From contig NC_090384.1 in assembly GCF_036365525.1 (NCBI RefSeq), forward strand, positions 55,363,895-55,427,894: a stretch of 64,000 bases of DNA, in the 5' to 3' direction. Position 1 is the stretch's first letter; every line of letters starts with the position of its first letter. Source of the DNA: Heterodontus francisci (Eukaryota). The notes beneath the pieces are model-generated. The model saw only the letters and a list, made by a program, of their open reading frames with translations. It ran no database searches and was not told the origin of the DNA. The position numbers were made by a program, and so were the translations under genes. Positions 4,268-63,372 of this stretch are shown piece after piece.

Positions 4268-4309
4268 CTCCTTCTGGTATGTTTTCATAATCTGTATGAT
4301 CAGCTGAAC
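4268..4309 (-). CDS. Micro-exon with tyrosine motif ([14 protein letters not shown])
   Basis: tctctctttag|GTTCAGCT...GAAGGAG|gtaaag; 42 nt, phase 1-1, 268 nt downstream of the last C1 exon; encodes TDYENI. Confidence 0.7.
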
Positions 4310-7300
4310 CTAAAGAGAGAAATTACCTGTTTAAACTCGACATTCATCAAATTAAACATTTCCAATGTGAGGGTATTAAGTAACTCATTTAATATTTTTA
4401 AACTAATTGAAATCACCAAAATTAACTATTTTCACCATCAATAAAAAAATTGTGTTTACTCAATATTAAGTTTCAATGTGAAATAAAGCTTCAAATGAAT
4501 GCTTTGAGTTCAACAAAACAATCACTAGTGCAATATAACATTTTTGCTCTGAATCGGAATCCAATAACAACATTCACCTTGAAGGAGTAATTTGAAGTTT
4601 TTCTCTTGAATTTCCTTTGTTTCTATGTGAAGCACCTCACATCTGATGGAACTATCATGATCATTTTCAGTTGTAGTAAATTGTGTACTCGTAACTGATG
4701 AAAATAAACCATCATCAGCAATCACAGGAGGGCTGTTAATCACTGAACAAGGTGTCCCATTTTTAAACCACTTTACTTGGACTTCAGCGGGAGCATAGCT
4801 TGTCAATGAGATACTGAGTGATATAGGCTGATTAACTCCAGGCAGTTCTGGATCAGCTTTAATAACAGACAAGTTCGGAGATAAAGCTGAAAAACAAATA
4901 AAAGGTTTTGTTAAGAATGTTAATAAGAATGTTTAGCCATTGAAGCAAACTGATTAATCTTCAATATGAGCAAAATGAAAACAAAGGGTGCTTTTTTTAG
5001 TCTGTGATATACCTAATTAATTAAGGGAAAGTCTAGATCTCATGAACCTGTGCAATATTACTATTAGATTGAAATATTTTCTATAAATATGCAACTCATA
5101 TTTACAGCAAAGAATGTTTTGAGAACATTGATCTCAAAGTGAAGATGGTGGTAAGATATTTTGGTGTACCACCTCGAGGCAGCATATAGTGACAGACAGC
5201 TTTACCCAGGGGTGTCAAAGGAACTCCTGAACAACAAAGGCTACTGCATTAATACTCAGACAGAAAGTAGAAGGAAAAATAGACCAAAACAAAACTCAAT
5301 TCAAAATCATTACAATTTTAGTTATTTGATCCAATTCCTGCTATGGGTATCTGTACTAAAAGTTTATTTTATAAAAAAGTTGAAGAAAGTTCAAAAGTAA
5401 AATGCACCCCCAGTGATGTCTTTAAGTATGAAAAAAAGGTTCAGAACTTGTGTGATTTAGCTTCTATAAACGTAATTACTTTAAAAGATGCATTCAGTTT
5501 GAATATATTTTTGAAGTGCATATGAATGACCTTAAATCATACATCATTCCTTTAAGTCAGTTCAATTGAAGTTTTCCTGTCCCATTTATCTAATTCCAAT
5601 TTGCTCAGAGCTATTTATTGTGAAATGGCTCATAAATGTGTGCCCCCTCATTCCCCATCTCCAGCATCAAGTGGAATTTTGCCAGATTATTTCTGTGTCA
5701 GCTAGTAACTTCAGCAAATTAATCACAAACATTTAAATATAAAGTGAAATTTTTCAAACTTGTGAAGAGAAGTATCAGGGTAAAACATACCTGAAAGTGT
5801 TAAAAATGCCTGTTTTCTAATTGGAATTTTTAACTTATCATGTATCACATGGAAGGAAAATTCTTGATCAAAATCTAGAGCAGTTGGTGTTACTTGCAAA
5901 CGGGAAGACATCCTATAACATCCACTTATGTCCTTCTCGGGTCCTTTAACTGTGATCCCTTTACATATCTCTTTTTCTTTCTGTCGCCAAGTTGTATTGA
6001 TGTCATGTGGGTAAAAGTTAACGACATTGCAAATGAAAGCTTGTTTTGCACCATACATAGCTTCTGGTGGGTCCAGTTTGATGTCTTCAACGAATGGAAT
6101 TCCTGTTCAAATTGCATGAAACTACAGTTGATTATGATAATGAATCGTCATCTTGTTTAAGGATCAAAAAGGAGATTCAAGAGATCTGTCTTTATTCCCC
6201 AAATACTGAATATTTAAATGACGACAGACATTCAATCTACATTGTGCAACTTGGGCTTTGTTCCAAAGATATAGTGGCATTTAAAAAAAACTCTTTACCT
6301 TTTTTGCTATTTATTTGATAATGTGATGGAGTTTATGTGCGTAGACTGCTATCTGAACAGTTGATCTGTTGAATGTACTGCCAGGTGCACTGACCTTAGA
6401 TTCAAAGCTTGCATTTTTCAGAGACAGTCCTTTACTGGAAAATGAAACCAAAGGCTTCAGAGTTCTGGGGAAATCAGAACTGGATGGAACCAGGTAAAAC
6501 AGTCATGTGATCAGAGTGGATCAGAGGCATGTGACTGGAGCTCATATTACAGACTGCAGTGTTGAAGCAAGCAGCAAGCAGTTGTTTTAAAAAAGACAAG
6601 CTACTGTGATTGGAACCTGTTTTCTAGGAGATGACCCCTGGGCAAATATGAGTTGCTACATCTGTTTTTGGTGCCTTAAAGAGTTACTAGTGGAACCACA
6701 CCATCAAGACTGCTGGGGAGATAGTGGTAATGTCACTGAACTAGTAATGTAGAGACCCAGGAAGACAGGATCTGGATATTTATCTGAAAGGATTTTGTGG
6801 CCGTAACTGGTGCCACCTTTGCCGAAAGGACTGCCCAAAAGATCCGTAAGATCTATCTTTGTTGCATCTGATAATTAATATGCAATCTTTAACAGTGATT
6901 TAACTGTTAGTTCATGTTTAAATTGCTTTTGGTTTGAGCATTACAGTAATTTTATGAAAGTGTATTTTGTCCGTTATTTTTCCAATTGGAGTCAGTCAGT
7001 GGATTGGATTCTTTTGGTTTGTGATCTCTACAGGATCATGACAATAATCACGGCTAAGCTGGGATGTCACAATTTAGGGCCAATGGAGTCACTGAAAGGA
7101 ACAATGTCAATTTAATGAATTTGAAACATTTACAAATATTCTTTTCAATGTTCCATAATCGGTACTATAAAGTTGCACTTCTTATTAGAATCATACCTTT
7201 TATTTTCAAAAAATGAATGGATGAGATAGGCTTGTTTGAAGTTTCAGAGTGAAGGATTTGCATTTTGAACTCTTTTCCATGGTCCTGATAAGTTGGAATG

Positions 7301-10300
7301 AATGTCCTTCTGGACAATCGAGAGTACAAACCAGTTGTTTCATCCCACTCAACTTCATCTGTTTCAACTCCATCTTTAGTTTTATCAAACCCTTTGAACC
7401 AGAATATCTGATTGTCTTCTGGATAGAAGCCATATGCTTTGCAGTAAAGTGTTACAGGTTTTCCCATCTCTGGGCAAAGGGGATCTGTTTTGATTTCTGC
7501 GACCTTTGGCACCGACACTGCACTCATACAAAAGAAACAGTGTTAATGAGATTGTATAACTGAAAAAAACACCACAATTTAAAGCATAGTACGCCTTGAT
7601 AAATTTTCAAACATCAATTTCTTGAACAAAATATCCTCTTCCTCTGCCCCTCTTTTCCCCCTCAGACTAGTATAGGCCCCGACTGTAGCCACTGCTCCAG
7701 TATCTCTTGGAAGTGACACACATTATGTAAGAGACTGAACATTGAGTGCTGGGAGGCTATTCAAGCCGAATCCTGCATTCACCAGATAAGCACCTACACC
7801 TTCCGATAGTGGTCAATGGACAATAACAGTTCACCTCCCCAGAGGCCAAGACAGACTGTAGCACTCCCCCAGTACCTCAGCTGAGGTCAGATAACTCAGG
7901 CATCACACTTGCAACCTTACAGATATAAATCACTAGTTAGGCCCCAGCTGGAGTACTGCGTTCAGTTCTGGGCACTGCACATTGGGAAGGATGTCAAAGC
8001 CTTAGAGAGTGTGCACAAGAGATTTACTAGAATGGTACCAAGATTGAGGGATTTCGGTTATGTGGAGAGACTGGAGAAGCTGCAATTGTTCCCCTTAGAA
8101 CAGTGAAGGTTAAGAGCAGATTTGATAAAGGTGTTTAATATCATGCATGCCTGCGAATGTGGTGGAGGCAGATTCAATCGTGGCTTTCAAAAGGGAATTG
8201 GATAATTATCTGAAGAGAGAAGACTTGCAAGGCTACCGGGAAAAAGTGGGGGAGTGTGACAAGCTGAGTTGCTCTTGCAGAAAGCTGGCATGGACATCAC
8301 CGGCTGAATGGCCTTCTTCTGTGCTATAACCATTCTATGATTCTACTTCTCTATTGCTTAGGCACAAATTGGGTGGCACATTCTCCCAATGAGCTAACAG
8401 GGAGCTGCAAATAATCATTTCCAACTCCATTCAGCTTAGTTCCAGTACTACTCTTGCCTCTGAAGAAGGCCTGGATACTAGTGCCATTCCACGGCTTGAG
8501 GAAATAATTTGCAGCTATAGGTCAGTACAATACTCAGAGCACTGCAGTACTCAAAGCGACTGTGTGCACCTCTTCAGATGGACATAAAAGATCTCACTGC
8601 ACTTTTTCCCATAAGCAAGGACTTCTTCTGGCCCAGCCAACATTTCACCCTCAAACAAAATCTGCCGAAAAAAAGATGAACTGGTCATTCATCACATTGC
8701 TGTTTATAGGAAATTGCACAAACTACCTGCCTTGTTTGCCTGCAAAACAACCAAGACAACACTTCAAAACTAATTCATGAGCAACCAAGGGCTGAATATT
8801 GTTCAGTTCCCTATGTCGGGCTTCATGGCGGATGAGGTTGAATCCGAAAATCCCCTCAATGGCTGCCATCGCCACTTCCATCCCACCCCCAACAGTCCCC
8901 CGTTCCTTCCTGCCATTACGCTTCTCTTTGCCGCTCCCTCCTGCGCCCGTCTTCTTGCTGCTCACTACCCGCTGCCTTCCCTTACCCACTCGCTCCGGTC
9001 TCGCCGCTCGCTCCCCACTTTTCCCCACCTCCCCAGCCGCTGGCTCCATGCCGCGCCACTTCTAGCCTCTCAGCCACATGCTCCTACGTTCAAGCATTCT
9101 CCGCCCTGCGCCCTGAAGAAGCAAGGTGGGCCGCGAGGGGTAACGGAACAACACAGGAACGAGTGGCCGAGAGGAGGGAAGTGGTGGACCTGGAGCTAGC
9201 AGCTAGGGGTGGGGGGAAATGGCCAGTGGGGAAGGGGTGGGGGAGCAGAAAGTGTTGAGGGCGGGAGCAAGTAACTTGAGGGGGGGGCGGGGAAAGAGAG
9301 CTGGTGGGTGGAGCAAGTGGCTGAGGGAAGGCAGCAGCATGGCAGGAATCGAGATGGGTGAAGTGGTGATTGAAGCAGGGATGTTGGGAGGGAGCAGGGT
9401 ACTGTTCGGGTGAATAGAGACAGCTATTGAGGGGTGAGGATGTCATTGCGTGGAGACGTCATGCGCGCATTCGTACTGGCAGGCTGGAAAACGTTTGCAT
9501 GTATTGATGACGTCTGCGATCGCTCTGCGCATGCTCTGTGTTGCTAGGAGTCACTTTGCAATATTTTATTTATTGCTGTTCTAAACCAAGAACAACTCCA
9601 AATGGAATAACTTTCACAGATAGCAAAAAAGATCAACTGGGATTTTCTGTTTGTTAAAATATAGAAAAAACAAATCAAGTTAATTTTAGTTTTAGGTGAG
9701 ATTTCTATTTAACATTTGTTGTTTTCTTTATTCCCCTTGTCTCCAATCAGATCACTCCAGGTCATGGCCTTTCACCATGGACCTTTGCCAATGTAGCAAA
9801 AACCCAGTAGAATTATCAGCACCAACTTCAATCTGTGTTTTAGTTTCCGATTATTAATGTTTACCAATTTACAATTTTATGTATTTTTAAAATGAATTTA
9901 AATGAAATACCCAAGTCAATTATGGCCCAGATTTTGCTGTCAAAATAATGACGAGGCTAATGGCACATGCCGTCTTTTATGCACAAACCGTACGACAACA
10001 TTAGGTAAGGGGTTGATGTGTGGTTAAGCCCAAACATACAAATGTTGCTGTTTGAGTTGCCATCAGTTTTGCCAAACAGCATCCCGCTGTTTGCCTCACC
10101 ATTGAAATGCACTGAATGGCCTAAAGTTGCTGTATTTCCACAGTAGATATGCACTAAACATGCCACAGAAAGTTTAGGCTGATCTGAAGTGAGGCAAGGA
10201 ACCTGTCATAGAGCTATCTTTAATCAAGCATGGATTCAGACAAAGGGAGCTTTTTTAAGCGGTCTAAAGTTCTTTTAACAATGTGTTGATCACTGCCAAT

Positions 10301-13300
10301 CAATCTCCCCGGCACTGAAAATTAACTACTAAAAGTGTGGAGTCTCATTCCTTCAGGTACTAACTGTTGTTGGAAATTTTGAAAAAGTAAAAGTTTAAAT
10401 GTAATCTTTATAAAACTTTTTGTCTCCTTTTCTCTTCCTCTCTTTCTGAACCAGGCCGAAGGGCCTGTTTCTATGCTGTACGACTCTATGACTCTATGAC
10501 ATTGAATTCACCCAAACTAATTTCTATTTCCTTCTCAGTCCTTGCGCTGTTAATTTCATCACCTGGCATTGATGTAGGCACCTATCACAATAAAGGCACA
10601 CCTTGCCAGCCAGCCCTGCAAAATCATCTTCACTAACATCTGGGGACTTGTGCCACAATTAACTATAATTCCCACAGACTAGTCAAGCAACAGCCTGACG
10701 CAGTAATACTGTCAGAATCATACCTCTCAGCAAATGTCCCAGACTCATCCATCACCATTCGTGAGTATGTCCTGACCCAGCAGCAGGCTTCACCCACTAG
10801 AAATGACGAGAATTGGCCCTGGGAGTCCTCAGTACCGATTCCAGAACCCATGAAGTCTCATGGCATCAGGTCAAACATGGGCAAGAAAACCTCCTGCTGA
10901 TTACCATATTCCGGCCTTTGCCAGCTGATGAATCAGTTCTCCCCCATGTTGAACACCATTTCGAAGATGTACTGAGTGTAGCAAGGGCACAGAATGTACT
11001 CTGGGCGGGGGACTTCAATGTCCACTGCAGACCACGCTGGCCAAGTCCCGAAGAAAATAGCTGCCAGACAGGTCCTGCGGCAGGTGGTAAGCAAACCAAG
11101 ATGAGGGAAAACCTACTTGACCTCATCCCCACCAATCTAGCCATCACAAATGGATCAGTTAAGCACATATTGGTAGGAGCGAGGTCCTGTCTTCACATTG
11201 AGGACACCCTCCATCGTATTGTGCAACAGTAACACTGTGCTAAATGGGATAGATTTAGTATACATCTAGCAGCTCAAAATTGGGCCACCTTGAGGTGCTG
11301 TGGACCATCATCAGCAGCAGAATTGTATTTCACCAAGTCTGTAATGTCATGGCTGGGCATATCCCTCATGCTAACATTACCATCAAGCCAGGGGACCAAC
11401 CCTGGTTCAATGAGGAGTGCAGGACTGCATGCCAGCAGCAGCACCAGGCATACGTAAAAATGAGGTGTCCACCTGGTGAAGCTATAACAAAGGACAACAT
11501 GGATGCGAAACAGCAGAAGCAGCATGCTATAGGTGCAGCTGAGTGATCCCACAATCAATGGATCAGATCAAAGTTCAGCAGTCCTACCACATGTAGTTGT
11601 GAATAGCGAATTAAACAAATAATGCAAGGAGGAGGCTCCATGCATATCCCCATCCTCAATGATGGCAGAGGCCAGCATGTAAGTACAAAACAATAAGCAT
11701 TCACAACCATCTTCAGCCAGACATACTGAGTGGATGGTCCATTTCTGCCTCCTCCGGAGGTCCCCACCACCATAGAAGCCAGTTTTCAGCCAATTTGATG
11801 CACTCCATGTGTTATCAAGAAATGGCTGAGCGCACTGGATACAGCAAAGACTATGGGCCCTGACAACATTCTATATCTAGTGCTGAAGATTTCTGCTCTA
11901 GAACTATCACCGCCTCTAGTCAAGCTGTTTCAGTATAGCTACAACACTGGCATTCACCCAACAAAGTGAAAAATTGCCCAGGTATGACCTGTCCACAAAA
12001 AGCAGGACGAATGCAATTCAGTCAACTCCCACCCCATTAGCTAATCTTAATTATCAGCAAAATTATGCAAGATGTCATCAATATTACTATTAAGTTGCAA
12101 TACTTACTCACCAATAACTGGATCACTAATGCTCACTTTGGGTTCCGTCAGGAACACTTGGCTCCAAACCTCATTCCTGTTTTGATCCAAATGTGGTCAA
12201 AAGAGCTGAATTCCAGAGGAGAGGTAAGCATGAGTGTCCTTGACATCAAGGCAGCATTTGATTGAGTGTGGAATTAAAGAGCACAAAAAGATGGTTTTGG
12301 TTGCAAAAGGCCAATCATTGCCTCAGGGTAGTGTCCTAAGCCCAACCATCTGCAGCTGCTTCATCAATGACCTGCTCACCATCATAAGGTCAGAAGTGGG
12401 GATGTTTGCTAATGATTGCCCAGTGTTCAGTTCCATTCGCAACTCCTCAGGTAATGAAACATTCTGTGCGGACATGCAGCAAGACCTGGACAATATTCAG
12501 ACTTAGGTTGATAAGTGGCAAGTAACATTCACGCCAGACAAGTTCCAGGCAATGACCATTTCCAACATAGGTCCAACCACCTCCCCTTGACATTGAATAC
12601 AAACACCAAGTCTGCCACCATCAACATCCTGGGTCACCATCGACCAGACATTTAACTGGGTCAGCCACATAAATACTGTGGCTACGAGAACGGGTCACAG
12701 GTTGGGAATTCTGCAGTGAGTAACTCACCTCCTGACTCTATAAAGCCTTGCTACCATTTACAAGCCACAAGTCAGGAGTGTGATGGAATATTCTCCACTT
12801 GCCTGGATGAGTGCAGCTCCAATAACACTTTAGAAGCTCGAGGCATCTGAGGCAAAGCAGCCTGCTTAATTATCAGCCTATCCACCACCTTAAACATTCA
12901 TTCCCTCCACCACCAGCACACAGTGGCAGCAGTGTGTACCATCTACAAGATGCACTGCAGCAACTCACCAAGACTGCATCGCCAGCATCTTCCAAAGCTG
13001 TCTCCTGTACCATCTAGAAGGAGAAGGGCAGCAGGCACATGAGGACACTGCCACCTCCAAGTCACACACCATCCTGTGTTGGAAATATATCGCTGTCCCT
13101 TTATTGTCACTGAGTCAAAACCTTGGAACACCCTATCTAACAGCGCTGCGAGTGAACCGACACCACATGGACTGTATCATTTCTAGAAGGCGGATCACCA
13201 CCACCTTCTCAAGTGTAATTAGAGATGCACAATAACTACTGGCCTTGCTCAGCAACACCCACATCCCATGAACAAATGAAGAATCTTCAATCTGATTGTC

Positions 13301-16300
13301 TAAGGGGTTGCTTTCCCTGCACACTCAGGTCACAGATACTCATTTTTCCTTGCAACTATGTTATCAGCTTGCAGCAACTTGCCACACAAAAAATGTAAAA
13401 GCTTGAACTTGCAAGAGGAAGTCCAACTAAGGGCTGTTAGATGCCCTGCCACAGCCGTTTATGGCCCTATATGTTTCTTTAAGAAATGTTCAGAAAAAAC
13501 TAGCCATCATATACTCCAGTTGGAACATGGTTACTTACCCAGTCGTTGGAGTAGCCAGTCAACTTGCAATGGCTCTATTAGGCTCTCATGTTCTACCTGG
13601 CACGTGTATTTATTCCCAACATCAGCTCTGGTAGGTACACTTTTCACACTACTTGTCAAGTAATAGAGTCCATCATTTCCCAGAGTTGGCTCACTAACTT
13701 CAGGTTCTTCTGCCATTTTCTCACCATTTTTGAGCCAGGTAACTGTGATTTCACTGGGGTAAAAAGAATGGATTGGACAGTTTAAAGTCATGGTTTCTCC
13801 TGCAACTGCTTTTTCTGTGCCACATGTTATCGTGTCCAGTTTTGGAGTAGCTGAAAAAGAAACATGAAAAAAAAACTTAATGGAGGCTTTAACAAAAGCA
13901 GAGTAAAGACACTGTGGATTAGATTCTACCCTATCCACAGCCAATGGCCAGAAAGTATATTCCATTGTGTTCTGAGAATTCTGAAGCAGGACTCGAGTAT
14001 AAAACAAAAGGTTACACAACAACCTCAAGTAAGAAATACAGCGCTCAGGAGACTTCATTCGTCACAGGGTTTTCCAAATAAAATCATCAATTTTGCTGCA
14101 TTGCAAAAAATAAGGAAACAGTATCTGTAAACAAATCTAATCTATTGTTCTGTACAAGGAATTGTCAAAAATTTACATACCTTTAACCTTCAGAGTTATT
14201 TCTTTCTGTTGCTGAATACCAGTGCATTCATGATAAACCTTACAGATGTACTTTGTGTCCTGGTCTTGCAGTATATCTGGTAGAATAACTAGTACACTGG
14301 TGATGCTGTATGTTTTATCTTCATACTGCAACTCACTTATGTAATGGTTATACTTGGACTTCTTCCCATTTTCATTAGAAAAGGTTGTTCTGTTGCTCTG
14401 ATCCAGCCTAATAATTTCTTTTCTCTCATTATTTTTTCTGCTTTGTTCCCATATGATAATTAATGGTCTTGGTTTAAATCCATTGATTGAACAAGTCAAG
14501 GCCACAAGTTCATTCTGATTGATGTAAGGTGGTGCCACAATGTTTGAAATCTTTGGTGGCACTTTGGGAAAAAGAAACAAAGAAATCAACTATTTAAACT
14601 GAAGAATTTTCACAAATTAATAAAAACAAGGAAATATTATTTTACAATCTGAATTTTCTATGATTTAGAGTCTACAGATGGCAGAACTGCATTACCACTA
14701 TCAAGCACATGAATGTCACTTCATATGTACACAAATATACATATTAATAAAAACACAGAATGGAAACAGGTAGCATAAATAATAATGATTAAAATCAAAT
14801 GTTCATGCATTACCTCCTTTAACATTCAGTATTACAGTTTTTGTAGCAAGTTGCAGAAGAGTATTATGGTCAATCCCAAGAATTAATTCGGCCCCATCAT
14901 CTTTGAATACATCAGGATACATTTTGACGTTGCATTTTACATTGGTAGTCCCATCACTGTTAGCTTCAAATACTGGTTCCAAACACTTAAAGGATGTGTC
15001 TTCTTCATTACCCCCATTGATAAGAAGCTGCACTTCAGCTGGTTTTACTTTGCTCTTTGTGATCTGGTCCGGGTAATGTGCGTCAAAAATTTTCTTTTTG
15101 TTTTCATCCCCCTTCCTCTTTAAGAATAAAATAATTGTAATCTCCTTAGGTCTAAATCCAGTAACTTGGCAACTGAAGATGGCTTCCTCAAAATGGCGAA
15201 TGATGGGAGGTTTGCTGAATTCACTAATTTTTGGAGAAACTAATAAAAAAAATTAAAACTTGACAATCGACATATTCACATTTGTTTACCCAGTTTTATT
15301 TTCTTGCTAGACCACAGGCAGAAGGTCATTTACAAGACACGATGTAGGACAGCAGTTTCTGCAAGGTTTTGCTGTCCTTTTCAATCAATTCAGCCAAAAT
15401 GGCCAAAGCAGTGCAAATTACATCCAGTGGAAATTGAATTTCCATGAACTTATGTGCTAGTTTAAAAAAAAACTTTGTGCTAGAAGCCAGCCCCATTCAC
15501 AAAACCGGCCACCCCCCAAGTTCAAATTAATCACCACTGCAAGCCCCGCTAACTGCACCTGACTGCGAGCACGCGTGGAGGCTCTTAAAATTAATAATAG
15601 GAACAAAAAATGCTGGAAACACTCAGTTCTGATGGGTCATCCACCTGAGACATTGATTCTGTCTCTTTCTCCACAGATGCTGCCAGATGTACTGAGTGTT
15701 TCCAGCATTTATTGTTTTTATTTCATATTTCCAGTATCCACAGTAGTTTGCTTTTCTCTTAAAATTAAGCTTTTTGGGGGCAAGGGTGGTCATTTGGTGG
15801 GGGGCGGGGGGGGGGGGGGGGGTGGTAGGGAAAGCGTCTTGGGTCCTGGAGGTGGTTGGGGAAGCAGTGGTGGCCCTCTATCGGGCACCTTGTGCCCGAT
15901 CGTCAGTGCCCCCCTCCGGAGTGTGGAGAGGCCGACAGCTCTCACTAGGTGGCCTTTCCCAGCTCCAGGGTGCCCGCTTTCTATGGGTAAAATCCCCATG
16001 GAGGCAGACAATTCTAAAGAGGGTGCAGGAGCAGAGAAAACTGTGTATATGTGCATAAATCATTGAAGGTGGCAGGACAAGTTGAGAGAGCAGTTAATAG
16101 AGCATCCTAGGCTTCATTAATAAGGACATTGGGCTGGATTTTACGTTGGGTGGATGGGAGCTGGCCACTGATGTAAAAGTTGGTGGCGAACCCACCTGCC
16201 TAGCCCGGGGATCTGTCCCGCATTTTACGAGTCACCGGGCTTTAATTGTTCCGAGGCAGGACTTCCACCTGCTTGAGGGAGGAAATCCCGCCTCACTGAA

Positions 16301-22300: not shown

Positions 22301-25300
22301 GGGGTTGCACAAACAGAGAGACCTAGGGATATGTGTGCACAAAACATTGAGGATGGTAGGGCAGGTTGAGAAAGCGATTAAAAAAAGCTTTGGGATCCTG
22401 GTCTTTATAAATAGAGGCATATAAAAGCAAGGAAGTTTTTATGAAATAAAAACAGAAAGTGCTGGAAAAAGACAACAGATCTGGCAGCATCTGTGGAGAG
22501 AGAATCAGAATTAACTTTTCAGGTCTGTGACCTTGCATCAGAACAGTTATTATGAACCTTCATAAAACACTGGTTTGGCCACAACTGCAGTGCTGTGTCC
22601 AATTCTGGGCACTGCACTTTAGGAAGGATGTGAACGACTTTGAGAGGTCACAGAATAGATTAGAATGGTTCCAGGGATGAGGGACTTCAGTTATGTGGAT
22701 AAGTTGGAGAAGCTGGTGTTGGACTCCTTAGAGCAGAGGCGATTGAGAGATTTCATAGAGGTGTTCAAAATCATGAGGGGTCTAGTCATGGTAGAGAGCC
22801 ACTGTTCCCATTGGCGAAGGGGTTGAGAACCAAAGGGGAAGAAAACAGAGGCAATAGAACCAAAGGCGAAATGTGGAAAAACCAGCGAGCGGTTGTGATC
22901 TGAAATGCACTGCCTGAAAGGATGGTGGAGGGAGATTCAATCAAGGCTTTCAAAAAAGGGAATTAGATAAGCGTACAAAGGGGAAAGAATTGCAGGGCTA
23001 TACGGAAAGGTCATGGAGTGGGACAGGCTGGATTGCTCTTGCAGACAGCCAGCATGGGCTTGATGAGTGGCCTCCTCTGTGTTATAACCATTCTAGGTTT
23101 CTACACAAGTATCGTAAGGAGTATTTTTTAAAGCAAAATTTTGGAAAATCACTGCTTGATTGTGCTGATTCATGACAGAGTTTTACATCTGGCAATTTGC
23201 AAATTAGTTTTGAGTGGAAATGCTCAGAAAATGTTTGGGGCATAGTTTTGCGCTGGATTGCCAATTGCAGCCAAAATGGAAACTCCAGGTCCAGTTATCT
23301 AATGAACACCATGGTGGGAGCACAATCACAAGAACTGTTATGCTTCAAGGGGAAGGCCCAACACAACCTAATTTGTGGAAAACATGCAATAAACAGCCAA
23401 AGAATTACAAATACACATTTCACATTGCACAATCAAAAGATTTCACCAGTCAAAACATTACCTTTTTTAAATTTCAGGCAATATAAATATAGACAACACA
23501 GTACTCCACATAACAGCAACGTAGCAAATACACTTCCAACAACTGATCCTGCTACTGAAGTTATTTTGTGCTCTGAAATATGAAACATAAATACAGAAAT
23601 ATTTAGACAAATATTATGTCACAAGAAATAAATTGTTTCACTTGCACAGAATTTAAGAGGCTGCTCCATTTTTGTAAATTATAAACTAAGATACTTAAAC
23701 ACAGTAAAGTCTTTAAAGAATTTGAAATTACAGATAAGTGCAATTAAATGTCCTCTAAATGATGGCCGAGAAATTTCATGTGAGTTGCACCAAGGAAAAA
23801 TAAGTTTCAGCTGCCAATGGCCCAGAGAGGTATTTACACTGCAATTTTATGGGTCAGTTTATTTGCATGCGTGTTATAGTGAAAAAATAGTTGTAACATG
23901 CTGGTTTTTTTTTTTTTAGAGATACAGCACTGAAACAGGCCCTTCGGCCCACCGAGTCTGTGCTGACCATCAACCATCCATTTATACTAATCCTACACTA
24001 ATCTCATATTCCTACCACATCCCCACCTGTCCCTATATTTCCCTACCACCTACCTATACTAGTGGCAATTTATAATGGCCAATTTACCTATCAACCTGCA
24101 AGTCTTTGGCATGTGGGAGGAAACCGGAGCACCCGGAGAAAACCCACGCAAACACAGGGAGAACTTGCAAACTCCACACAGGCAGTACCCAGAATTGAAC
24201 CCGGCTCGCTGGAGCTGTGAGGCTGCGGTGCTAACCACTGCGCCTGTGTTGCATGGAAATTACAATTAAGCCTTTAAAAAGCAAATTTCAGCGGAAGACT
24301 GCAGTAGCAGCAGGCAAGTAAGGAACCGTGCTCAAGTGTCTCTCCCAATCCTTTGTGCACCTTGTTTCCCCTTTCTAATGCTACATTCTGGTTCCACTCC
24401 CCTGCTGAATTAGTTTAAACCCTCTCCCACAGCACTAGCAAAACACCCCACAAGGACATTGGTCCAAGCCCTGTTGAGGTGCAACCCATTCAGCCTGTAC
24501 AGGTCCCACCTCCCCAATGTCCCAGGAATATAAACACCTCCCTCCTGCACAACCTCCAGCCACGAATTCATCTGCCCTATCCTCCTATTTCTATACTCAC
24601 CAGTGCTTGGCATTGGAAGTCAACCTGCAGATTACTACCTCTGAGGTTCTGCTTCTTAAATCTCTTTCCAGCTTCCTAAAGCTGCCTGCTGGAACTCTTT
24701 CTACTATGTCGTTGGTACTGATGTGGACCACGACCGCTGGCTGTTCACCCTGCCCCCTCATAGTGCTCTACAGCTGCTCAATGACATCCTTGAACCTGGC
24801 TCTAGGGAGGCAACATACAATCCTGGGATTCGTATGCAGCCTCAGAAATGCCTGTCTGATCACCTAACTATAAAATTCCCAGAACCTCAGCCACCGATAG
24901 TGCTGCGGACTTGGCTCTGATTGTACTCTCCTGAGGAACGATCACCCTCACCAGTATTCAGAACTGAATATCAGTTAGAGAATGGGATGCTCTGAAGGGA
25001 TTCCTGCGCTATGCCTGGTCTTCCTTGACTGTTTGGCTGTCACCCATTCCTTCTCTGGCTGCACTCTCTTAAGCTGTGGGATGACCACCTCCTGGAATGT
25101 GCTATGCATGAAACTTTTAGCCTTGCGGATGTACTGCAGTAACTACAGCGCCTTCCGAGCTTCTCCACCCGACGACGTTTCCTCCACACGTGGTTATCCG
25201 GTATATAGGAAGTGCCCTGAAGTTCCTACATGGAACAGGATGTGCATTCCACATGTCTGAGGGGCACCTTCATAGCCCTATTTATTAGACTAACTAAACA

Positions 25301-40300: not shown

Positions 40301-43300
40301 ATAACTGGGGGGGAAGTGGGAAGGATCATGCAGCTGTTGAGTCTATTGTGGCCCTGGTAGTCAGTCTCTGTATTTGTTGCTTCCAAAGGCGGATGATATC
40401 CCAAGCGGTACAGATGGTAATGCTGCCCAACAAAGGGTGCACCCTGGTATCCCCTGCGGTCAGAGCCCCTCTCTCAGGGAATATGAAACATGAATATGCA
40501 TGACAGGACTTTAGCGAAGCCGTATGAGAATGATAGACTAGGATATCAGAAGCCCGCTGAACTCCAGTAGGATCCCTGGAGCAATTGGTGAGTGGAGATG
40601 ATCGGGAATGTCCAGCCTGGGTCAGGTGGTGTGCCTGACCAGGGTCCAAAAGGAGGAACTGAAGTGGGACCAGTGGGGCAACGTTAGTAGATTATTTAGC
40701 ATTAGGATACATTAACAGTCTTAGAAGGAAGAAGGAAGCACTGTAGTTGTGGGAACCAGGGTATGATGGGATGCGTGGCAATGGTTATGGGAAGCTGTAC
40801 AACTCAGAACTTTAACTGCCTTTATATCTGTGTAAACAACTTGGCCTTGAGAGAAGACTGCGATTGCAGGAGGCACAGGATATTATAAACTGTGAAGACA
40901 CCAAGCGAAGGAGACAACAGGTGGGGGGTGGGTGGATGGGTGGGTGGGATGATTAGTGAGACAATACACTTCAGTTTATTGATCAAGCTGCAGCTTTGGA
41001 ATGTATCCGGGAGTGCAGATGGGGTTGTATGGACAAATGAGTAATTGTTATTGTATTCTATAAATTTGTACCAGATTCGGTTTCTGTGAGAAGCCTCTGG
41101 ACGTTTCACCAGGCACGTCTCCCTTGCACCGCTGTTTGAATAAACCTTTATTTACTTTAATCCTGTGGACTTGAGACCAGTTATTTTCCCCACAACACCA
41201 CACACGTTAAAAGTGCCTGTAAGCTAAGTTATTGAAAGCTGGGCAGCACTGACAGCAATCACACATGTTAAATTATAAATGAACTTTTAAAGCTTTGGTA
41301 TCCCACAAGCAGCCAGAAGGAAACTAGGTTCCTAACAGCTCCTTTATACTTATTGCATTAGATGCAATGCTTCATTTGCTTTCTCTTGTATTCAACAGCA
41401 GTTTATCCTGTTGATCAGTGAGCTGCCAAAGCCTCTATATGCTGCTTTATTAAAGGAAAGGAGAGTTCAGAAGACTACCAAAGATTTGTAGGTTGATAGA
41501 TAAATTGGCCATTGTAAAAATTGCCCCTAGTGTAGGTAGGTGGTAGGAGAATTGAGGGGAAAAAGTGGGGATGTGAGAGGGAAAAATGGGATTAATGTAG
41601 CATTAGTATAAATGGGTGGTTGATGGTCGGCGTGGACTCGGTGGGCCGAAGGGCCTGTTTCGGTGTTGTATTTCTCTATGACTACCAATCAGCTGTTTAA
41701 AAAGTGTGTTACTATTCAGGAGACTATAGACCTAATAGCAAGTATGAATGATGCAATCATGACCCTTATCCCCTTCTGAGTGGTGCATCATGCTTTGAAA
41801 AAGTTAGTTTACAATTTAGAGCAAGAAATGAGTGGAAGTCAAAAATGAAATAAAAACAGGATTCTGTGACTGCATTATCTCACTGTTGATCTTTTATCCA
41901 TTTGATAGTTTGCAGATCATTTCACACATCAACTCCCTCCAAGGTTGGTGTATCTGTTGATTCTCTCTTCACCCCTTTTCCTATTTTTCCAACATTACTA
42001 AATGTTTGTTTACCTCTTGGCCATACGTTTGCTGAAGGGTACCCACCCAAAATGTCATTTAAAAAAAAATATTTATTTCCAGTATTTTCAAATCAGTCTG
42101 GGCACAAGCAGATTCCACTGTACAGACAATCTGAAGATAATTCAGCTTAATTACTGTTAATAGCAGTTTTATAAAATTACTATAAGCAATCTCCCTATGA
42201 CTCTAACACGCAGTATTATGGAACAGCTTTTAAACATGCATATTGTTGTCTCCTATTCTGAAGTTTAGAAATCTTATGGCTGGTTGATCTGAATAATCAT
42301 TATGGTATACAATAGTCTTTTCATTGTGGAATAATAAAGGATGAATTCTTGATTTAAGTCGGATGCAAGCTACAGTACAAATGCAATGTTAAATAATGGG
42401 CATGTCATTTAAACACGTGTAAGCTTCAACAAAAGCGCACTGAAAAATATTATGCAAAGAAGAGAACATACCATTCACTGTGAGTTTAGTTTCCTTTGAC
42501 GTATTGACAAATGAACGGTGATTCATGATGCACCTGTACCGATTACCATCGTCATCCAATTTTGGTTTAATTCTCACTCTACTAGAAACATTGAAGGTTC
42601 CATCACTGTTGGAAGTTAATGCACCAGTGCAGACTTCTTCTGTTAGTTTCTTAGTTTCCCCATTTGCTATCTTTTCCCAGAAGAGCTCATGCTGCTGAGG
42701 ATAAAATCCAGTAACATCACATTTCACAGACCCCTCTGAACCAGTCAGAATAGTAATGTGTTCTGTGGACAAATAGATCACTGGTGCAGCTGCATTAAAG
42801 ATAAATAGAAGAACATGTCAGACAGGTTGAAGGCACACTGCCATAAATATCTAAAGCCAGGTCGAAGTTAATTTGTACAAACATATACTAAAAACACCAC
42901 TTTCCTTCCTTCAGCTATCTCACTCATATAATAATCTTCTTCCAGAATGTGCACAATTATATCTGGGTTAAATTAAGTAACTACTCCAATACCTCAAATG
43001 TAGATTGAAACATTTCAAATTCCTCCATCATCAACAAGCATGAGGAGGAATGGGGAAAGAGATGAGGACAAAGCAGGGGAAGATGAGGAGGAGGAAGAAG
43101 ACAGAAGGAGAATGACAACAACTTGTTTATATAACCTCTAAAGAATTTAAAAGAAAAAAACCATGCATTTATATAGCATCTTTCGCAACCACAGGACATC
43201 CCAAAGTGCTTTACAGCTAATGAAATGTTTTTAAAGTGTGGTCATTGTTGTAATGTAGAAAACATGGCAGCCAATTTGCACACTGCAAATTCTCACAGAA

Positions 43301-46300
43301 AGCAATGTGATATGACCAGATAATCTATTTTTGTGATGTAGATTGAGGGATAAACATTGGGCAGGATACCAAGGGTAACTCCCCTACTTTTCTTGGTAAT
43401 AGTGCTGTGGGATCTTCCACATCACCTGAGAGGATGGACAGGGCCTCAGTTTAATGTCTTATCTGACAGACAGCACCTCCAACAGTACAAAACTCCCTCA
43501 GTGGAATGTCAGCTTTTGATTTTTTGGCTCAAGTCCTTGAGCAGGCCTTAAACCCACAACCTTCTAACTTAAAGACAAGAGTGCTACCAAATGAGCTACA
43601 AGCAACACGAAAGATATTTAGGAAGAAATGCCAGAACACAGGAACAAGGTGATTGAAGGAATGGTGGGACAGAGGATTGCAGGATACTTAACAAGCCATA
43701 GTCAGAAGAACAGAGTTTTCAGGGTGGGGTCAGTAGGTCTGGAGAAGATTACAGAGATATGGAAGGCTAAGGCCATAAAAAGGACTTGTATCATTTAAAA
43801 TTCATACACCAAAAAGAACATCTCACAAACAAATATTTACCCCATCGATATTTTCTAAATCCTGGACAAACCTGCCAGAAAGTCGACAATATTTTCATGT
43901 TAGAATTGCTGCAGAAATTGGCCTTGACCAGTTGTAGATTTCTCAGGGCTATGGAAATAATTAACCCTCAAAGGGTTTAGAGTGATGATAAAGAAAGCCT
44001 CAGATTTCCATAGAAAATAGGAGCAGGAGTAGGCCATTTGGCTCTTCGAGCCTGCTCCACCATTCATTATGATCATGGCTGATCATCCAACTCAGTAACC
44101 TGTTCCCACTTTCCCCCCATATCCTTTGATCCCTTTTGCTCCAAGAGCTATATCTAACTCCTTCTTGAAAACATACAATGTTTTGGCCTAAACTGCTTTC
44201 TGTGGTAACGAATTCCACAGGCTCACTACACTCTGGGTGAAGAAATCTCTCCTCATCTCAGTCCTGAAAGCTTTACCCCGTATCCTTAAGACTATGACCC
44301 CTGGTGCTGGACTCCCCCACCATCTGGAACATCCTTCCTGCATTTACTCTGTCAAATCCTGTTAGATTTTATAGGTTTCTATGAGATCCCCCCTCACTCT
44401 TCTGAACTCCAGCGAATATAATCCTGACCAACTCAATCGCTCCTCATAGGTCAGTCCCACTATCCCAGGAATCAGTCTGGTAAACCTTCACTGCACTCCC
44501 TCTGTAGCAAGAACATCCTTCCTCAGATAAGGAGACCAAAACTGCACACAATATTCCAGGCGCAGTCTCACCAAGATCCTGTATAATAGCAGCAAGACAT
44601 CCCTGCTCCTATGCTCTAATCCTTTCGCTGTGAAGGCCAACATACCATTTGCCTTTTTACCGCCTGTTGCACCTGCATGCTTACCTTCAGCGATTGGTGA
44701 ACGAGAACACTCAGGTCTCATTGCATATTCCCCTCTCTCAGTTTATAGACGTTCAGATAATAATTCGCCTTCCGGTTTTTGCTACCAAAGTGGATAACCT
44801 CACATTTATCCACATTATACTGCATCTGCCATGCATTTGCCCACTCACTCAACTTGTCCAAATCACCCTGAAGCCTCTCTGCATCCTCCTCACAACTCAC
44901 CCTCCCACCCAGTTTTGTGTCATCTGTAAATCTGGAGATATTACATTTAGTTCCCTCATCTAAATCATTAATATATATTGTAAATCGCTGGGGTCCTAGC
45001 ACCGATCCCTGCGGTACCCCACTCGACACTGCCTACCATTCGGAAAAAGACCCATTTATTCCTACTCTTTATTTCCTGTCTGCCAACCAATTTTCTATCC
45101 ATCGCAATACACTACCCCCAATCCCACACGCTTTAATTTTACACGCTAATCTCTTATGTGGGACTTTGCCAAACGCCTTCTGAAAGTCCAAATAAACCAC
45201 ATCCACTGGCTCCCCCCTCATCAACTCTACTAGTTATATCCTCGAAGAATTCTAGTAGATTTTTCAAGCACAATTTCCCTTTTGTAAATCCATGCTGACT
45301 CTGTCCAATTCTATCACTGTTCTCCAAGTACTCTGCTATAAAATCTTTGATAATCTTCCATTTGCAAATCTACCATATTAATATAAATGTTTTGTGCAAC
45401 TTTTTAAACTATGTTTTATAGTGATACTCAAGGGATTGTGCATGTAATTTGTATTTTTTCTTACTGGTTATGTAGACTTCATAAATCTCGATATTGGGAG
45501 TATGCTGATTGGTTGTTTTAGGTTGTTTGTTCTTTGGGAGCTGTTTGCGGGCACGTCTTGTGCAGCCTATTAGTTTTCTGTTCTGAGCAGATGACATAAT
45601 AAAAATTTACCAGAGCACTCTTTTTGAAGAAGTAGTTTTTGTGTTCTTTTCTGCACATTACAGTTGTGTTGCTACCAAAGAAAACTCTTCTATTCTGCCC
45701 CAACATTGCAACTCACCTTTAACCCCAGAGAATTACCTCCGCTACACCATTACAAGCTTCCCATTTCCCAGACTTCCTGCTAGTCTCAGGGGTTAGACTG
45801 CAAATTCCACGTCAAAATTAAGACTGCCCAAACTCATTGAACACATTGCTAGGAGACGGAGCAAAATGTCATTCCATCAGTCTGAGCTGCATTAAAACCC
45901 AGGTTTCATAAGTGAAAAGGTAGTGTGCCAACCCAAAGAATCACCTACTATATATTGAGCATATTTATTTTACAGCTGTAAAGGTGTTTCCACAATACAA
46001 CAGATAACATTTTGGACACTCTTACCTGACACCTGCATTTCCGATCTCTTTTCTACCTTATCAGGTGTGACAAATACAGTGCAAGTGTACTCCCCTTCTT
46101 CATCAAACTGTATGTTTGGAAGATATAGTGAAGCAACTCCTCCCTGTAAATCAGCATCAGACATTTTTGCTCCTTGTCTTTTTGATGAATGTATTCCTCC
46201 ATTAAAGACATAGATTTCTTTCTTCTCAGGCCCAAATGCCCACTGGACCCCTACATTTGTTAGGTCGATAGCTCCTCCGACAGTAAATATACATTCAAGG

Positions 46301-46361
46301 GAAACATCTTCCTTCGCCAAGACTTCCTTTGGGCTTGTAAATATGTTCACCTCCAAGGTTT
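4268..46361 (-). CDS. NCR3LG1: B7-H6/NCR3LG1-like multi-exon gene, partial: IgV-IgC1-TM-(IgC1)x6-Tyr motif, ~956 aa over 10 exons; leader and last exon not located
   Basis: Exons 46026-46361, 42472-42789, 23462-23572, 14814-15239, 14181-14561, 13539-13850, 7197-7517, 5791-6102, 4578-4886 and 4268-4309. All have AG/GT borders, lengths divisible by 3, phase 1-1 junctions and no stops. V and first C1 resemble human B7-H6 as I recall it ([26 protein letters not shown]; [10 protein letters not shown]). The symbol means 'like'; orthology is not tested. Confidence 0.8.
4578..4886 (-). CDS. Exon: post-TM IgC1 domain 6 (B-strand Cys to Ile)
   Basis: tttcag|CTTTATCT...CTTCAAG|gtgaa; 309 nt. [30 protein letters not shown]. 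Confidence 0.88.
5791..6102 (-). CDS. Exon: post-TM IgC1 domain 5 (F-strand Cys to Phe)
   Basis: aacag|GAATTCCA...CTTTCAG|gtatg; 312 nt. [29 protein letters not shown]. Confidence 0.88.
6322..7043. mobile_element. Solo LTR
   Basis: Begins TGTGATG and ends CATGACA (imperfect inverted termini); flanked by the 4-bp direct repeat ATAA (6318-6321, 7044-7047). Confidence 0.65.
7197..7517 (-). CDS. Exon: post-TM IgC1 domain 4 (F-strand Cys to Met)
   Basis: tgcag|TGTCGGTG...ATAAAAG|gtatg; 321 nt. [27 protein letters not shown]. Confidence 0.88.
7900..8345 (+). mobile_element. CR1 LINE 3' fragment
   Basis: [16 protein letters not shown] motif; tail ending ATTCTATGATTCTA. Confidence 0.85.
8370..8790 (+). 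mobile_element. DeuSINE (SacSINE1-like) remnant
   Basis: Deu-domain-like CTCTTCAGATGGACATAAAAGATCTCACTGCAC; related to the copy at 43150-43610. Confidence 0.45.
10600..13285 (+). mobile_element. Degenerate LINE of the CR1/L2 superclade (endonuclease-RT), distinct from the HER1-type copies
   Basis: Frameshifted pieces [34 protein letters not shown]; 3' end CACCACCACCTTCTCAAG...CCCACATCCCATGAA. Confidence 0.8.
13539..13850 (-). CDS. Exon: post-TM IgC1 domain 3
   Basis: tttcag|CTACTCCA...CGACTGG|gtaagt; 312 nt. [35 protein letters not shown]; canonical C1 set. Confidence 0.92.
14181..14561 (-). CDS. Exon: post-TM IgC1 domain 2
   Basis: caaag|TGCCACCA...GTTAAAG|gtatg; 381 nt. [29 protein letters not shown]; both Cys present. 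Confidence 0.88.
14814..15239 (-). CDS. Exon: post-TM IgC1-like domain 1 (degenerate, long insertion)
   Basis: ttattag|TTTCTCCA...AAAGGAG|gtaat; 426 nt. [46 protein letters not shown]; lacks the C-strand Trp and F-strand Cys. Confidence 0.85.
15595..15755 (+). mobile_element. Penelope-derived short element with 13-bp TSD
   Basis: CACAGATGCTGCCAGA family; flanked by CTCTTAAAATTAA at 15582-15594 and 15756-15768. Confidence 0.65.
16131..16848. mobile_element. Harbinger-like MITE
   Basis: Imperfect TIRs GGGCTGGATTTTACG / CGTAAATTTCCGGCC; an internal ~180 bp is near-identical to 15826-16005. Confidence 0.6.
18346..20700 (-). mobile_element. CR1 LINE fragment (endonuclease-RT)
   Basis: Minus-strand ORFs with [22 protein letters not shown] and [10 protein letters not shown]. 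Confidence 0.85.
19042..19382 (+). mobile_element. HE1-type tRNA-derived V-SINE
   Basis: A box TGGCGCAGTGG, B box GGTTCGATTCC, V-core TCTGCGTGGGTTTTCTCCGGGTGCTCC, CR1-derived tail and poly(A). Confidence 0.9.
20866..21060. repeat. Minisatellite, ~5 copies of a ~37-45 bp unit (TACACTGAATGC..GTTGACCC..CCCCATG)
   Basis: Directly visible imperfect tandem repeats. Confidence 0.8.
21740..23100 (+). mobile_element. Degenerate CR1 RT fragment containing a Penelope-derived insert (~22446-22546)
   Basis: [12 protein letters not shown] and SADDTQL motifs; insert flanked by TTATGAA repeats. Confidence 0.75.
23462..23572 (-). CDS. Exon: transmembrane segment ([37 protein letters not shown])
   Basis: tatttcag|AGCAC...AAAAAAG|gtaatg; 111 nt, phase 1-1, in frame with both flanking Ig exons. 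~27 uncharged residues followed by KFKK (positive-inside). Absent from the ORF track. Confidence 0.85.
23905..24244 (-). mobile_element. HE1-type V-SINE
   Basis: Reverse complement of 19042-19382, with poly(T). Confidence 0.9.
24370..25260 (-). mobile_element. CR1 ORF1 (esterase) remnant
   Basis: [13 protein letters not shown] motif; homologous to 34060-34981. Confidence 0.7.
27718..28068 (-). mobile_element. HE1-type V-SINE
   Basis: Full-length reverse-complement copy of 19042-19382. Confidence 0.9.
29017..29543 (+). repeat. 5' LTR
   Basis: TGAAGTGGGACCAG...CACAACA; AATAAA at ~29486. Confidence 0.9.
29547..29564 (+). promoter_or_regulatory. Primer-binding site, tRNA-Ser
   Basis: TGGCATAGTTGGCAGGAT versus TGGCGTAGTCGGCAGGAT, the complement of the vertebrate tRNA-Ser 3' end; 2 mismatches, both CpG-type transitions. 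Confidence 0.8.
31406..31500 (+). mobile_element. Penelope-derived short element with hammerhead-like core and 16-bp TSD
   Basis: CCGAAGA-AGGGTCACTGACCC-GAAACGTT; TSD TAGGAGGAACTAAGTT at 31390-31405 and 31501-31516. Confidence 0.75.
31680..33300 (+). mobile_element. 5'-truncated CR1 LINE (RT) nested in the ERV
   Basis: ORFs 31767-32660 and 32664-33212 with YRPISL, QGSMLGP and FTDD. Confidence 0.9.
33780..37970 (+). mobile_element. Near full-length CR1/HER1 LINE (ORF1 Zn-finger/SGNH esterase; ORF2 endonuclease-RT, frameshifted) nested in the ERV
   Basis: [13 protein letters not shown].., IVIGDS..HVGTND; [26 protein letters not shown]; ATTCTGTG tail. Confidence 0.92.
38560..40560 (+). pseudogene. 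Disrupted env-like ORF of the LTR element
   Basis: Non-LINE ORF fragments with N-glycosylation sequons (NIT, NST, NGT) and a terminal hydrophobic segment [13 protein letters not shown], directly upstream of the PPT and 3' LTR. Identity is inferred from position. Confidence 0.45.
39667..40177 (-). mobile_element. Rearranged CR1 fragment inside the env-like region
   Basis: Near-identical to the reverse complement of ~49600-50090 plus tail; has an internal deletion and two micro-inversions. Confidence 0.85.
40648..40658 (+). promoter_or_regulatory. Polypurine tract
   Basis: AAAAGGAGGAA immediately before the 3' LTR TG. Confidence 0.75.
40660..41197 (+). repeat. 3' LTR
   Basis: Direct repeat of 29017-29543 with substitutions and indels. 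Confidence 0.9.
41478..41685 (+). mobile_element. HE1-type SINE, 3' half
   Basis: Matches 19190-19375. Confidence 0.75.
42472..42789 (-). CDS. NCR3LG1: Exon: extracellular IgC1-set domain (B7-H6/tapasin-like)
   Basis: tgcag|CTGCACCA...GTGAATG|gtatg; 318 nt. [37 protein letters not shown]; both Cys present; NVS and NTS sequons. Confidence 0.92.
43150..43610 (-). mobile_element. DeuSINE (SacSINE1-like) with L2-type tail
   Basis: TTTATATAGC..CCCAAAGTGCTTTACA tail, Deu-like core, and a tRNA-like head at the right end. Confidence 0.55.
44010..45350 (-). mobile_element. 5'-truncated CR1 LINE
   Basis: [18 protein letters not shown] and [11 protein letters not shown]. Confidence 0.88.
46026..46361 (-). 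CDS. NCR3LG1: Exon: IgV-set domain (B7-H6-like)
   Basis: tttag|AAACCTTGGAG...GTGTCAG|gtaag; 336 nt. [45 protein letters not shown], with the canonical Cys-Trp-Cys. Confidence 0.92.
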
Positions 46362-62928: not shown

Positions 62929-63372
62929 AGAAGGATTTAAGAAGGCAATGAAAGGAGGGGAAAAAAGCCAGAGGTCAGGCTTCGCTTTCCAGGATGATGT
63001 TAGAGTAGTGTAAAAGTGGTCCAGCCAGATCTGGTGATGGATGGGCTAAGCCTGTTGTGCAGTAGATACACTGCAGTCTGCACTCCCAATAAAAAAAAAA
63101 CAAAATAAAGTGCCTCATGTTATCAGATTCCAGTCTTCAAAGGTGGACCATGTTTTAGGAACACATGACCAAAATATTCATGTCACAGTTCTGATCTATC
63201 TTGAATTTTGGACATAATTATCTTCAGTGATGTGCAATTGCAGACAATCAGGCAGCTATCGACTGATATTAACTTTATTTTGGGGTGAAGGGGATTAAAG
63301 GAGGCAAACCTTCTGTGACAATTAGAAAATACAGTTACAATTTTCTTAAGCTTCAAATTTTCATTTGCACAA

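Follow-up and report, generated by a model that had tools for sequence, protein, structure and literature searches.

The 64-kb window of the Heterodontus francisci genome analyzed here (contig NC_090384.1, positions 55,363,895 to 55,427,894; 'the window' denotes this whole stretch) consists of vertebrate DNA rich in repeats, and its minus strand carries one gene of several exons; no second gene with immunoglobulin (Ig) motifs was seen within it. The gene is the shark B7H6 (NCR3LG1). Its product consists of a V domain, a C1-set domain (C1), one transmembrane (TM) segment and an array of further C1-set domains that is probably cytosolic, with a disulfide that is probably dispensable and with a dileucine loop that probably limits the amount of ligand on the cell surface via clathrin adaptors.

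Layout of the gene

Ten exons, all with AG/GT borders and with lengths divisible by 3, join into a single 955-aa frame without stops, in the order V, C1, TM, six post-TM C1-set domains (D1–D6) and a tyrosine mini-exon. Both ends of the TM exon are in phase 1 (1-1). The shark orthologues are about 1,100 aa long and have seven C1-set domains; no exon for the seventh post-TM domain, D7, turned up in the window, and D7 presumably lies past the window start. Nor did a leader exon turn up there; N-terminal hydrophobic leaders are present in the orthologues. The exons and motifs are as follows.

46026..46361, minus strand: V-set Ig exon, predicted extracellular; both Cys kept; best PDB match human B7-H6, E 1.7e-10
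42472..42789, minus strand: C1-set exon before the TM; both Cys retained; NVS sequon at the position of the human B7-H6 NVT
23462..23572, minus strand: TM exon of 111 nt with KFKK after it (positive inside); the best counterpart in the window of the orthologues' TM segments
14814..15239, minus strand: D1, degenerate C1-set; F-strand Cys replaced by Leu, C-strand Trp missing, long disordered loop
15019..15036, minus strand: EVQLLI, acidic dileucine-type motif in the low-pLDDT loop of D1 (consensus as given in the available text of PMC2173715)
14181..14561, minus strand: D2, C1-set with both Cys; one loop carries an NRT sequon
13539..13850, minus strand: D3, canonical C1-set; both Cys kept
7197..7517, minus strand: D4, C1-set; F-strand Cys replaced by Met; most conserved domain among sharks
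5791..6102, minus strand: D5, C1-set; F-strand Cys replaced by Phe
4578..4886, minus strand: D6, C1-set; B-strand Cys replaced by Ile
4268..4309, minus strand: acidic linker mini-exon, 42 nt, with a DYENI tyrosine motif at 4278-4292; D7 comes next in the orthologues

C1 and D2–D6 score above the cut-off of the Pfam C1-set family (PF07654; 31–70 bits for D2–D6, compared with a cut-off of 21), and D1 scores under it (14.6 bits, E 0.042). AlphaFold modelling, which the earlier note on this DNA had proposed, yields for D1 of the window a C1-like sandwich with a predicted local distance difference test (pLDDT) score of 86 that matches the beta chain of class II major histocompatibility complex (MHC) molecules and beta-2-microglobulin; in the model of the orthologue P0006, all seven post-TM domains are beta-strand domains. 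As a separate observation, the TM exon encodes four cysteines (23475-23510), three of them at the inner end of the segment, a possible palmitoylation cluster that most of the orthologues lack.

Identity as B7H6

Human B7-H6 is the top PDB match for both V and C1 (E 3.4e-12 for the latter), and the orthologue P0006 matches human B7-H6 with E 4.6e-35, compared with 4e-17 for CD276. The C1 sequon column is common to 39 of the 58 domains aligned. A search with D4 retrieves 14 elasmobranch proteins, including one from the nurse shark (QTT61906.1, 1,092 aa; 63% identity in D4) whose record carries the name B7H6, and the array-bearing proteins of frogs, crocodilians, turtles and squamates carry NCR3LG1 as their source name. 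The likeness to human B7-H6 (PDB 3PV6, 3PV7, 6YJP, 4ZSO) extends to the V and C1 ectodomain, of which V is the NKp30-binding domain in humans, to the predicted single-pass type I layout and to the C1 sequon. The difference lies in the tail: according to the available text of PMC2715080, the human protein is of type I and 454 aa long, and its Gag-homologous tail contains an ITIM along with SH2 and SH3 motifs, whereas the shark tail consists of seven C1-set domains with an acidic dileucine loop and an acidic tyrosine linker, and no Gag-homologous segment of the human type was found. The C1-set array marks the shark gene as a variant; the array-bearing proteins of reptiles are still named NCR3LG1.

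Loss of the canonical disulfide

C1-set domains are a hallmark of MHC proteins, antibodies and T-cell receptors and normally need a disulfide that forms in the endoplasmic reticulum (ER); the class is not known to occur other than at the cell exterior and in the ER. In the window, V and the pre-TM C1 keep both canonical cysteines, and four of the six post-TM domains lack one of the two, with a hydrophobic residue in its place and the frames intact, exactly as described, with the right coordinates, in the earlier note. The F-strand Cys is replaced by Leu in D1 (ELILGIDH, 14866-14889, where the C-strand Trp is also gone), by Met in D4 (7249-7272) and by Phe in D5 (5840-5863), and the B-strand Cys by Ile in D6 (SLSISL, 4804-4821), so that, among the post-TM domains, the canonical B-F pair is present in D2 and D3 only. 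Because D1, D4, D5 and D6 each carry one or two non-canonical cysteines, 'without the canonical disulfide' is a more exact description than 'cysteine-free'. These four domains are C1 folds of a non-canonical type, and their role as natural disulfide-free C1 scaffolds, suggested in the same note, appears plausible in the light of the models.

The pattern was scored in 56 main-lineage proteins, from sharks to frogs, which include the window's own and 55 of the homologues P0001-P0061 (six isoform or partial duplicates were dropped, and P0062-P0066 were excluded as members of other families). Both cysteines are present in all 114 ungapped pre-TM domains, compared with 148 of the 356 post-TM domains, and the post-TM domains differ sharply among themselves: the pair is kept in 2/56 D1, 56/56 D2, 57/59 D3, 0/61 D4, 22/44 D5, 4/39 D6 and 7/41 D7 domains. 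The replacements are nearly all hydrophobic (Leu, Ile, Val, Met or Phe). Parsimony on a tree of 55 proteins gives no changes at the pre-TM sites and 15 at the post-TM sites, with some apparent regains, for example, in the frog D5. The same distribution is seen in 21 held-out reptile proteins, which lack D2: both cysteines are found in 0/19 D1, 0/21 D4, 1/21 D5 and 0/21 D6 domains, compared with 22/22 D3 domains. In 12 control Ig-like proteins with a C-terminal TM, all 107 C1 domains keep the pair; given this control and the absence of Cys at the same positions in the orthologues, the losses are not due to chance. A second family, from frogs and bichirs, lacks a Cys in 69 of 137 post-TM domains, compared with 11 of 41 pre-TM domains.

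Membrane topology

The earlier note took the Cys loss as independent support for a cytosolic location of the array. The location itself is well supported, but the Cys loss is supportive and not sufficient: it does not prove a cytosolic site because D2 and D3 are paired, because the cytosolic Ig domains of titin often keep the B-F pair (as described in the available part of PMC5766482) and because of the pre-TM losses in the second family. The topological evidence is the stronger one. Among the 61 homologues, 60 have a single internal hydrophobic segment, which separates C1 from D1, with no further one downstream; the net charge is –0.7 before the TM and +1.9 after it, and the flank after the TM is the more positive one in 50 of the 56 proteins. 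By established cell biology, this type I topology very likely places D1–D7 in the cytosol. The sequons of the post-TM domains occur at the chance level (235 compared with 244.7 expected, an observed-to-expected ratio of 0.96). The NTT and NLS sequons of the window are absent from the other members of a ten-protein alignment; D6 contains a further sequon, NGT, that had previously been missed.

A dileucine loop in D1

The variable loop of D1 (residues 61-76, pLDDT<50) contains the motif EVQLLI, which the earlier note overlooked. The motif matches the [DE]xxxL[LI] consensus within an exposed, unstructured segment; such motifs bind the AP adaptor complexes when placed in cytosolic tails or, as Nef shows, in an exposed loop (PMC2173715, available text). 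In a scan of a fixed window of 55-105 residues after the TM, with shuffled sequences as the control, the strict pattern [DE]xxxL[LI] occurs in 23 of the 56 main-lineage proteins, compared with 3.4 expected by shuffling and a background of 4-6%. In the held-out reptile proteins, the strict pattern is found in 18 of the 21 (1.5 expected). One of these matches comes from a model without TM and D1 and is therefore spurious; among the 18 proteins with both parts, 17 match.

The linker mini-exon contains a tyrosine in eight of the nine other sharks and a YxN motif, a putative SH2-binding site, in six of the nine; rays, the chimaera and frogs mostly lack it.

Phyletic spread and evolution of the array

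A wider search yields 66 proteins from sharks, rays, chimaera, coelacanth, reedfish, frogs and salamanders, and a library-wide search adds proteins from lungfish, caecilian, teleosts, alligator and snakes (20 named of the 150 listed). With the alligator protein as the query, 33 proteins are retrieved, of which 21 are new (crocodilians, turtles and squamates) and many are named NCR3LG1; none of these 33 matches comes from a bird or a mammal, which, in a length-limited, word-seeded search, is weak evidence of absence. The order V-C1-TM-D1...D7 is repeated in independent annotations from sharks to reptiles, including the directly submitted nurse shark record. In a FastTree phylogeny of 91 domains, D1, D2, D4, D5 and D7 each form a clade of their own across species, D3 and D6 form their own clades apart from the copies of the short forms, and none of D1–D7 groups with Ig constant domains, with low deep supports. 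Because the post-TM domains form their own clades across species, the array is older than the split between sharks and bony fishes.

Numerous variants surround the main lineage. Rays show a recent tandem expansion of the tail domains, with six near-identical D4 copies in Mobula and four D3-D4 pairs in Hypanus, and the V-C1 ectodomain is duplicated in skates (P0001, P0015, P0010, P0013). There are at least two further B7H6-like lineages: a six-domain paralogue with other Cys losses and no dileucine motif, found in sharks, rays, salamanders, caecilian and lungfish, and a short three-domain form in teleosts, bichirs and Xenopus; Heptranchias has an additional copy with four D4-like repeats (P0038, P0043, P0053, P0058, P0087, P0096; P0126, P0127, P0147, P0148; P0099). 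The second family of frogs and bichirs has the layout V-C1(-C1)-TM followed by 2-14 C1-like domains, often alternating between Cys-less and Cys-paired (P0062, P0064, P0065, P0102, P0112, P0113 and others; those named here are all uncharacterised).

Put in its broadest form, which we consider rather doubtful as a whole, the scenario would be that the ancestral jawed-vertebrate B7H6 had a cytosolic array of seven C1-set domains with repeated disulfide loss and a clathrin-adaptor signal in D1, that this form is alive from sharks to reptiles next to sister families of the same layout, that the array was swapped for a retroviral Gag-like tail on the way to humans, and that it has gone undescribed.

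Proposed mode of action

By analogy with the human protein, V and C1 would be displayed to NKp30. The tail would fold in the cytosol without disulfides, with a hydrophobic residue (Leu, Ile, Val, Met or Phe) filling the core at the position of the lost Cys, and the retained cysteines would be buried thiols, as in titin. Somewhat more likely than not, the [DE]xxxL[LI] loop of D1 would bind AP-1, AP-2 or AP-3 and route the protein to endosomes or lysosomes. By recruiting clathrin adaptors, the loop would keep the ligand inside the cell, or take it off the surface, until needed; if so, the exposure of this ligand to natural killer (NK) cells would be set after translation. D2–D7 could serve as a scaffold on which partners dock, to which sharks would add an acidic YxN linker that can be phosphorylated, although we put this at somewhat short of an even chance. 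In the human protein, the Ig-array tail would have been replaced by the Gag-homologous one.

Counter-evidence and alternative explanations

Several observations weigh against the reading of shark B7H6 as a ligand with a cytosolic, adaptor-binding array. All the counts given above are counts of related sequences and not of independent events. The joining of the TM exon to D1 is a predicted splice, read from exon borders and frame; four sequencing runs taken to be RNA contain 0.59 of the words, near the 0.61 expected from exons alone, which is given no weight here. The main complication is that skipping of the 111-nt TM exon would leave the frame intact and that the TM is missing from four gene models (P0014, P0092, P0235 and P0242), although such models are rare and may result from faulty prediction (P0014 being a hypothetical, partial protein). 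Both cysteines are retained near-universally in D2 and D3, in all 13 copies of the reptile D7 and in 21 of the 22 copies of the frog D5, and the pre-TM losses in the second family weaken Cys loss as a marker of location. A D2 sequon is common to 19 of the 56 proteins (12 rays and 7 sharks), and the excess of sequons in the ectodomain (observed-to-expected ratio of 1.34) is matched by that of the reversed motif (165 compared with 147), so that the contrast between the pre- and post-TM parts is weak. As for the signals in the tail, a wider dileucine pattern occurs in 47 of the 56 proteins (14.6 by shuffling) but was picked after the data had been seen, the motif is missing in all six proteins of the paralogous lineage B and in the two long forms of lungfish, LM mostly stands in place of LL in frogs, and the YxN motif is confined to sharks.

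Some of these observations fit other explanations. That the array is cytosolic but is mainly a signalling, structural or pathogen-decoy scaffold, with a dileucine match that has no role in sorting and, for example, packs on the domain, is unlikely although far from negligible: seven separate domain clades kept since before the split of sharks and bony fishes go far beyond the requirements of a sorting signal, the D4 or D3-D4 repeats are expanded in rays and lineage B lacks the motif, yet no partner for such a role is known, and the strict consensus recurs in the held-out reptile proteins even though the X positions are free and the loop is variable and disordered. Quite unlikely, in our view, is a cytosolic array in the main form combined with a secreted, TM-skipped splice form, in which D1–D7 also pass through the ER and for which the D2/D3 disulfide and the D2 sequon are kept. 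The phase 1-1 ends of the TM exon and the TM-less models agree with it, as do the D2 sequon and the near-invariant cysteines of D2 and D3, whose conservation it would explain; however, apart from the small number of such models, unpaired B or F cysteines in four or five of the domains would be a handicap for passage through the ER, and the example of titin shows that a kept Cys pair does not require a luminal phase (PMC5766482, available text). A further explanation would see this copy in decay, with the Cys losses as a first stage of pseudogenisation; the divergence of D1 (50% identity among sharks) and its weak Pfam score could be attributed to it. The chance of this is minimal: the frame is open and the splice sites are intact over ten exons, and the possibility raised earlier that orthologues keep the cysteines while this copy is under relaxed selection fares badly, as the losses are found in all orthologues, across jawed vertebrates. 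Decay is as good as excluded by the conservation of D4, whose mean identity among ten sharks (70.7%) is higher than those of V (65.9%) and C1 (58.9%).

Finally, the post-TM domains could be luminal or extracellular, through an inverted topology or a separate downstream gene joined on by the annotation, the Cys loss being incidental, as it is in certain Ig domains outside the cell. The C1-set domains known otherwise belong to extracellular or luminal proteins, the window yielded no leader exon, and pre-TM domains of the related second family also lack a Cys in some cases. Nevertheless, this is highly improbable given the recurrence of the V-C1-TM-D1...D7 order in independent annotations and in the nurse shark direct submission, the lack of a second hydrophobic segment, the positive charge inside and the type I topology of human B7-H6 (PMC2715080, available text). 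An annotation fusion with an Ig gene was likewise rejected.

Relation to known systems

The shark gene shares its domain order and Cys pattern with the nurse shark QTT61906.1 and the reptile and frog NCR3LG1 proteins, which are available in public records under that name, tail included. Like the probably cytosolic shark tail, titin and other cytosolic arrays consist of tandem Ig folds in which the B and F cysteines are kept in places and lost in others (PMC5766482, available text); these arrays, however, are of the I-set and belong to soluble or sarcomeric proteins, whereas the shark array is of the C1-set (PF07654) and lies on the tail of an immune ligand in the membrane. The shark UrIg and UrIg2, along with Ig heavy chains, resemble the shark B7H6 in combining V with many C1 domains, in the former case in a non-rearranging shark gene, but in UrIg2 a VJ and nine C1 domains precede the TM (PMC12227049, available text). 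The shark D1–D7 fall outside the Ig constant clades in the FastTree phylogeny, a tree in which UrIg2 is not included. The available text of PMC4622739 gave no confirmation that a constant domain of the shark IgNAR is without the disulfide.

In the literature on B7H6 evolution and on cytoplasmic Ig domains, no paper describing the Ig-array tail, its Cys losses or its sorting motif was found, with the main specialist papers on B7H6 evolution outside the coverage. Work by Flajnik from 2012 may mention extra Ig domains in the tails of frog B7H6 and may contain the architecture in its illustrations or supplements. The gene is known and its full-length sequences have been made public; specialists may have recorded the tail. 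The tail goes unmentioned in the available text of PMC12227049, PMC10751288, PMC11599192 and PMC6514059, and B7H6 is not named in PMC12151841.

Other features of the window

The introns are rich in fragments of CR1-like retroelements, and the one between TM and D1 contains a GC-rich repeat twice, in copies closely resembling each other (~15800-16000 and ~16450-16650). A near-intact long interspersed nuclear element with endonuclease and reverse transcriptase, split by one stop into 741 and 306 aa, lies on the minus strand at 55754-58900, in the presumed first intron. At 60682-62933, there are 150 copies of a 15-bp purine-rich repeat with 99% identity and a very strong GC and AT skew.

Implications

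A cytosolic C1 array present across jawed vertebrates would provide natural templates for disulfide-free C1 folds, for use in the engineering of intrabodies and constant domains. The Gag-like tail of human B7-H6 looks like a substitute for an older Ig-array tail, which would revise the history of a target of cancer immunotherapy. The regulation of B7H6 at the cell surface is known to matter because cytomegalovirus removes the human protein via endosomal degradation (PMC5561058, available text), and the array offers a direct test of such regulation.

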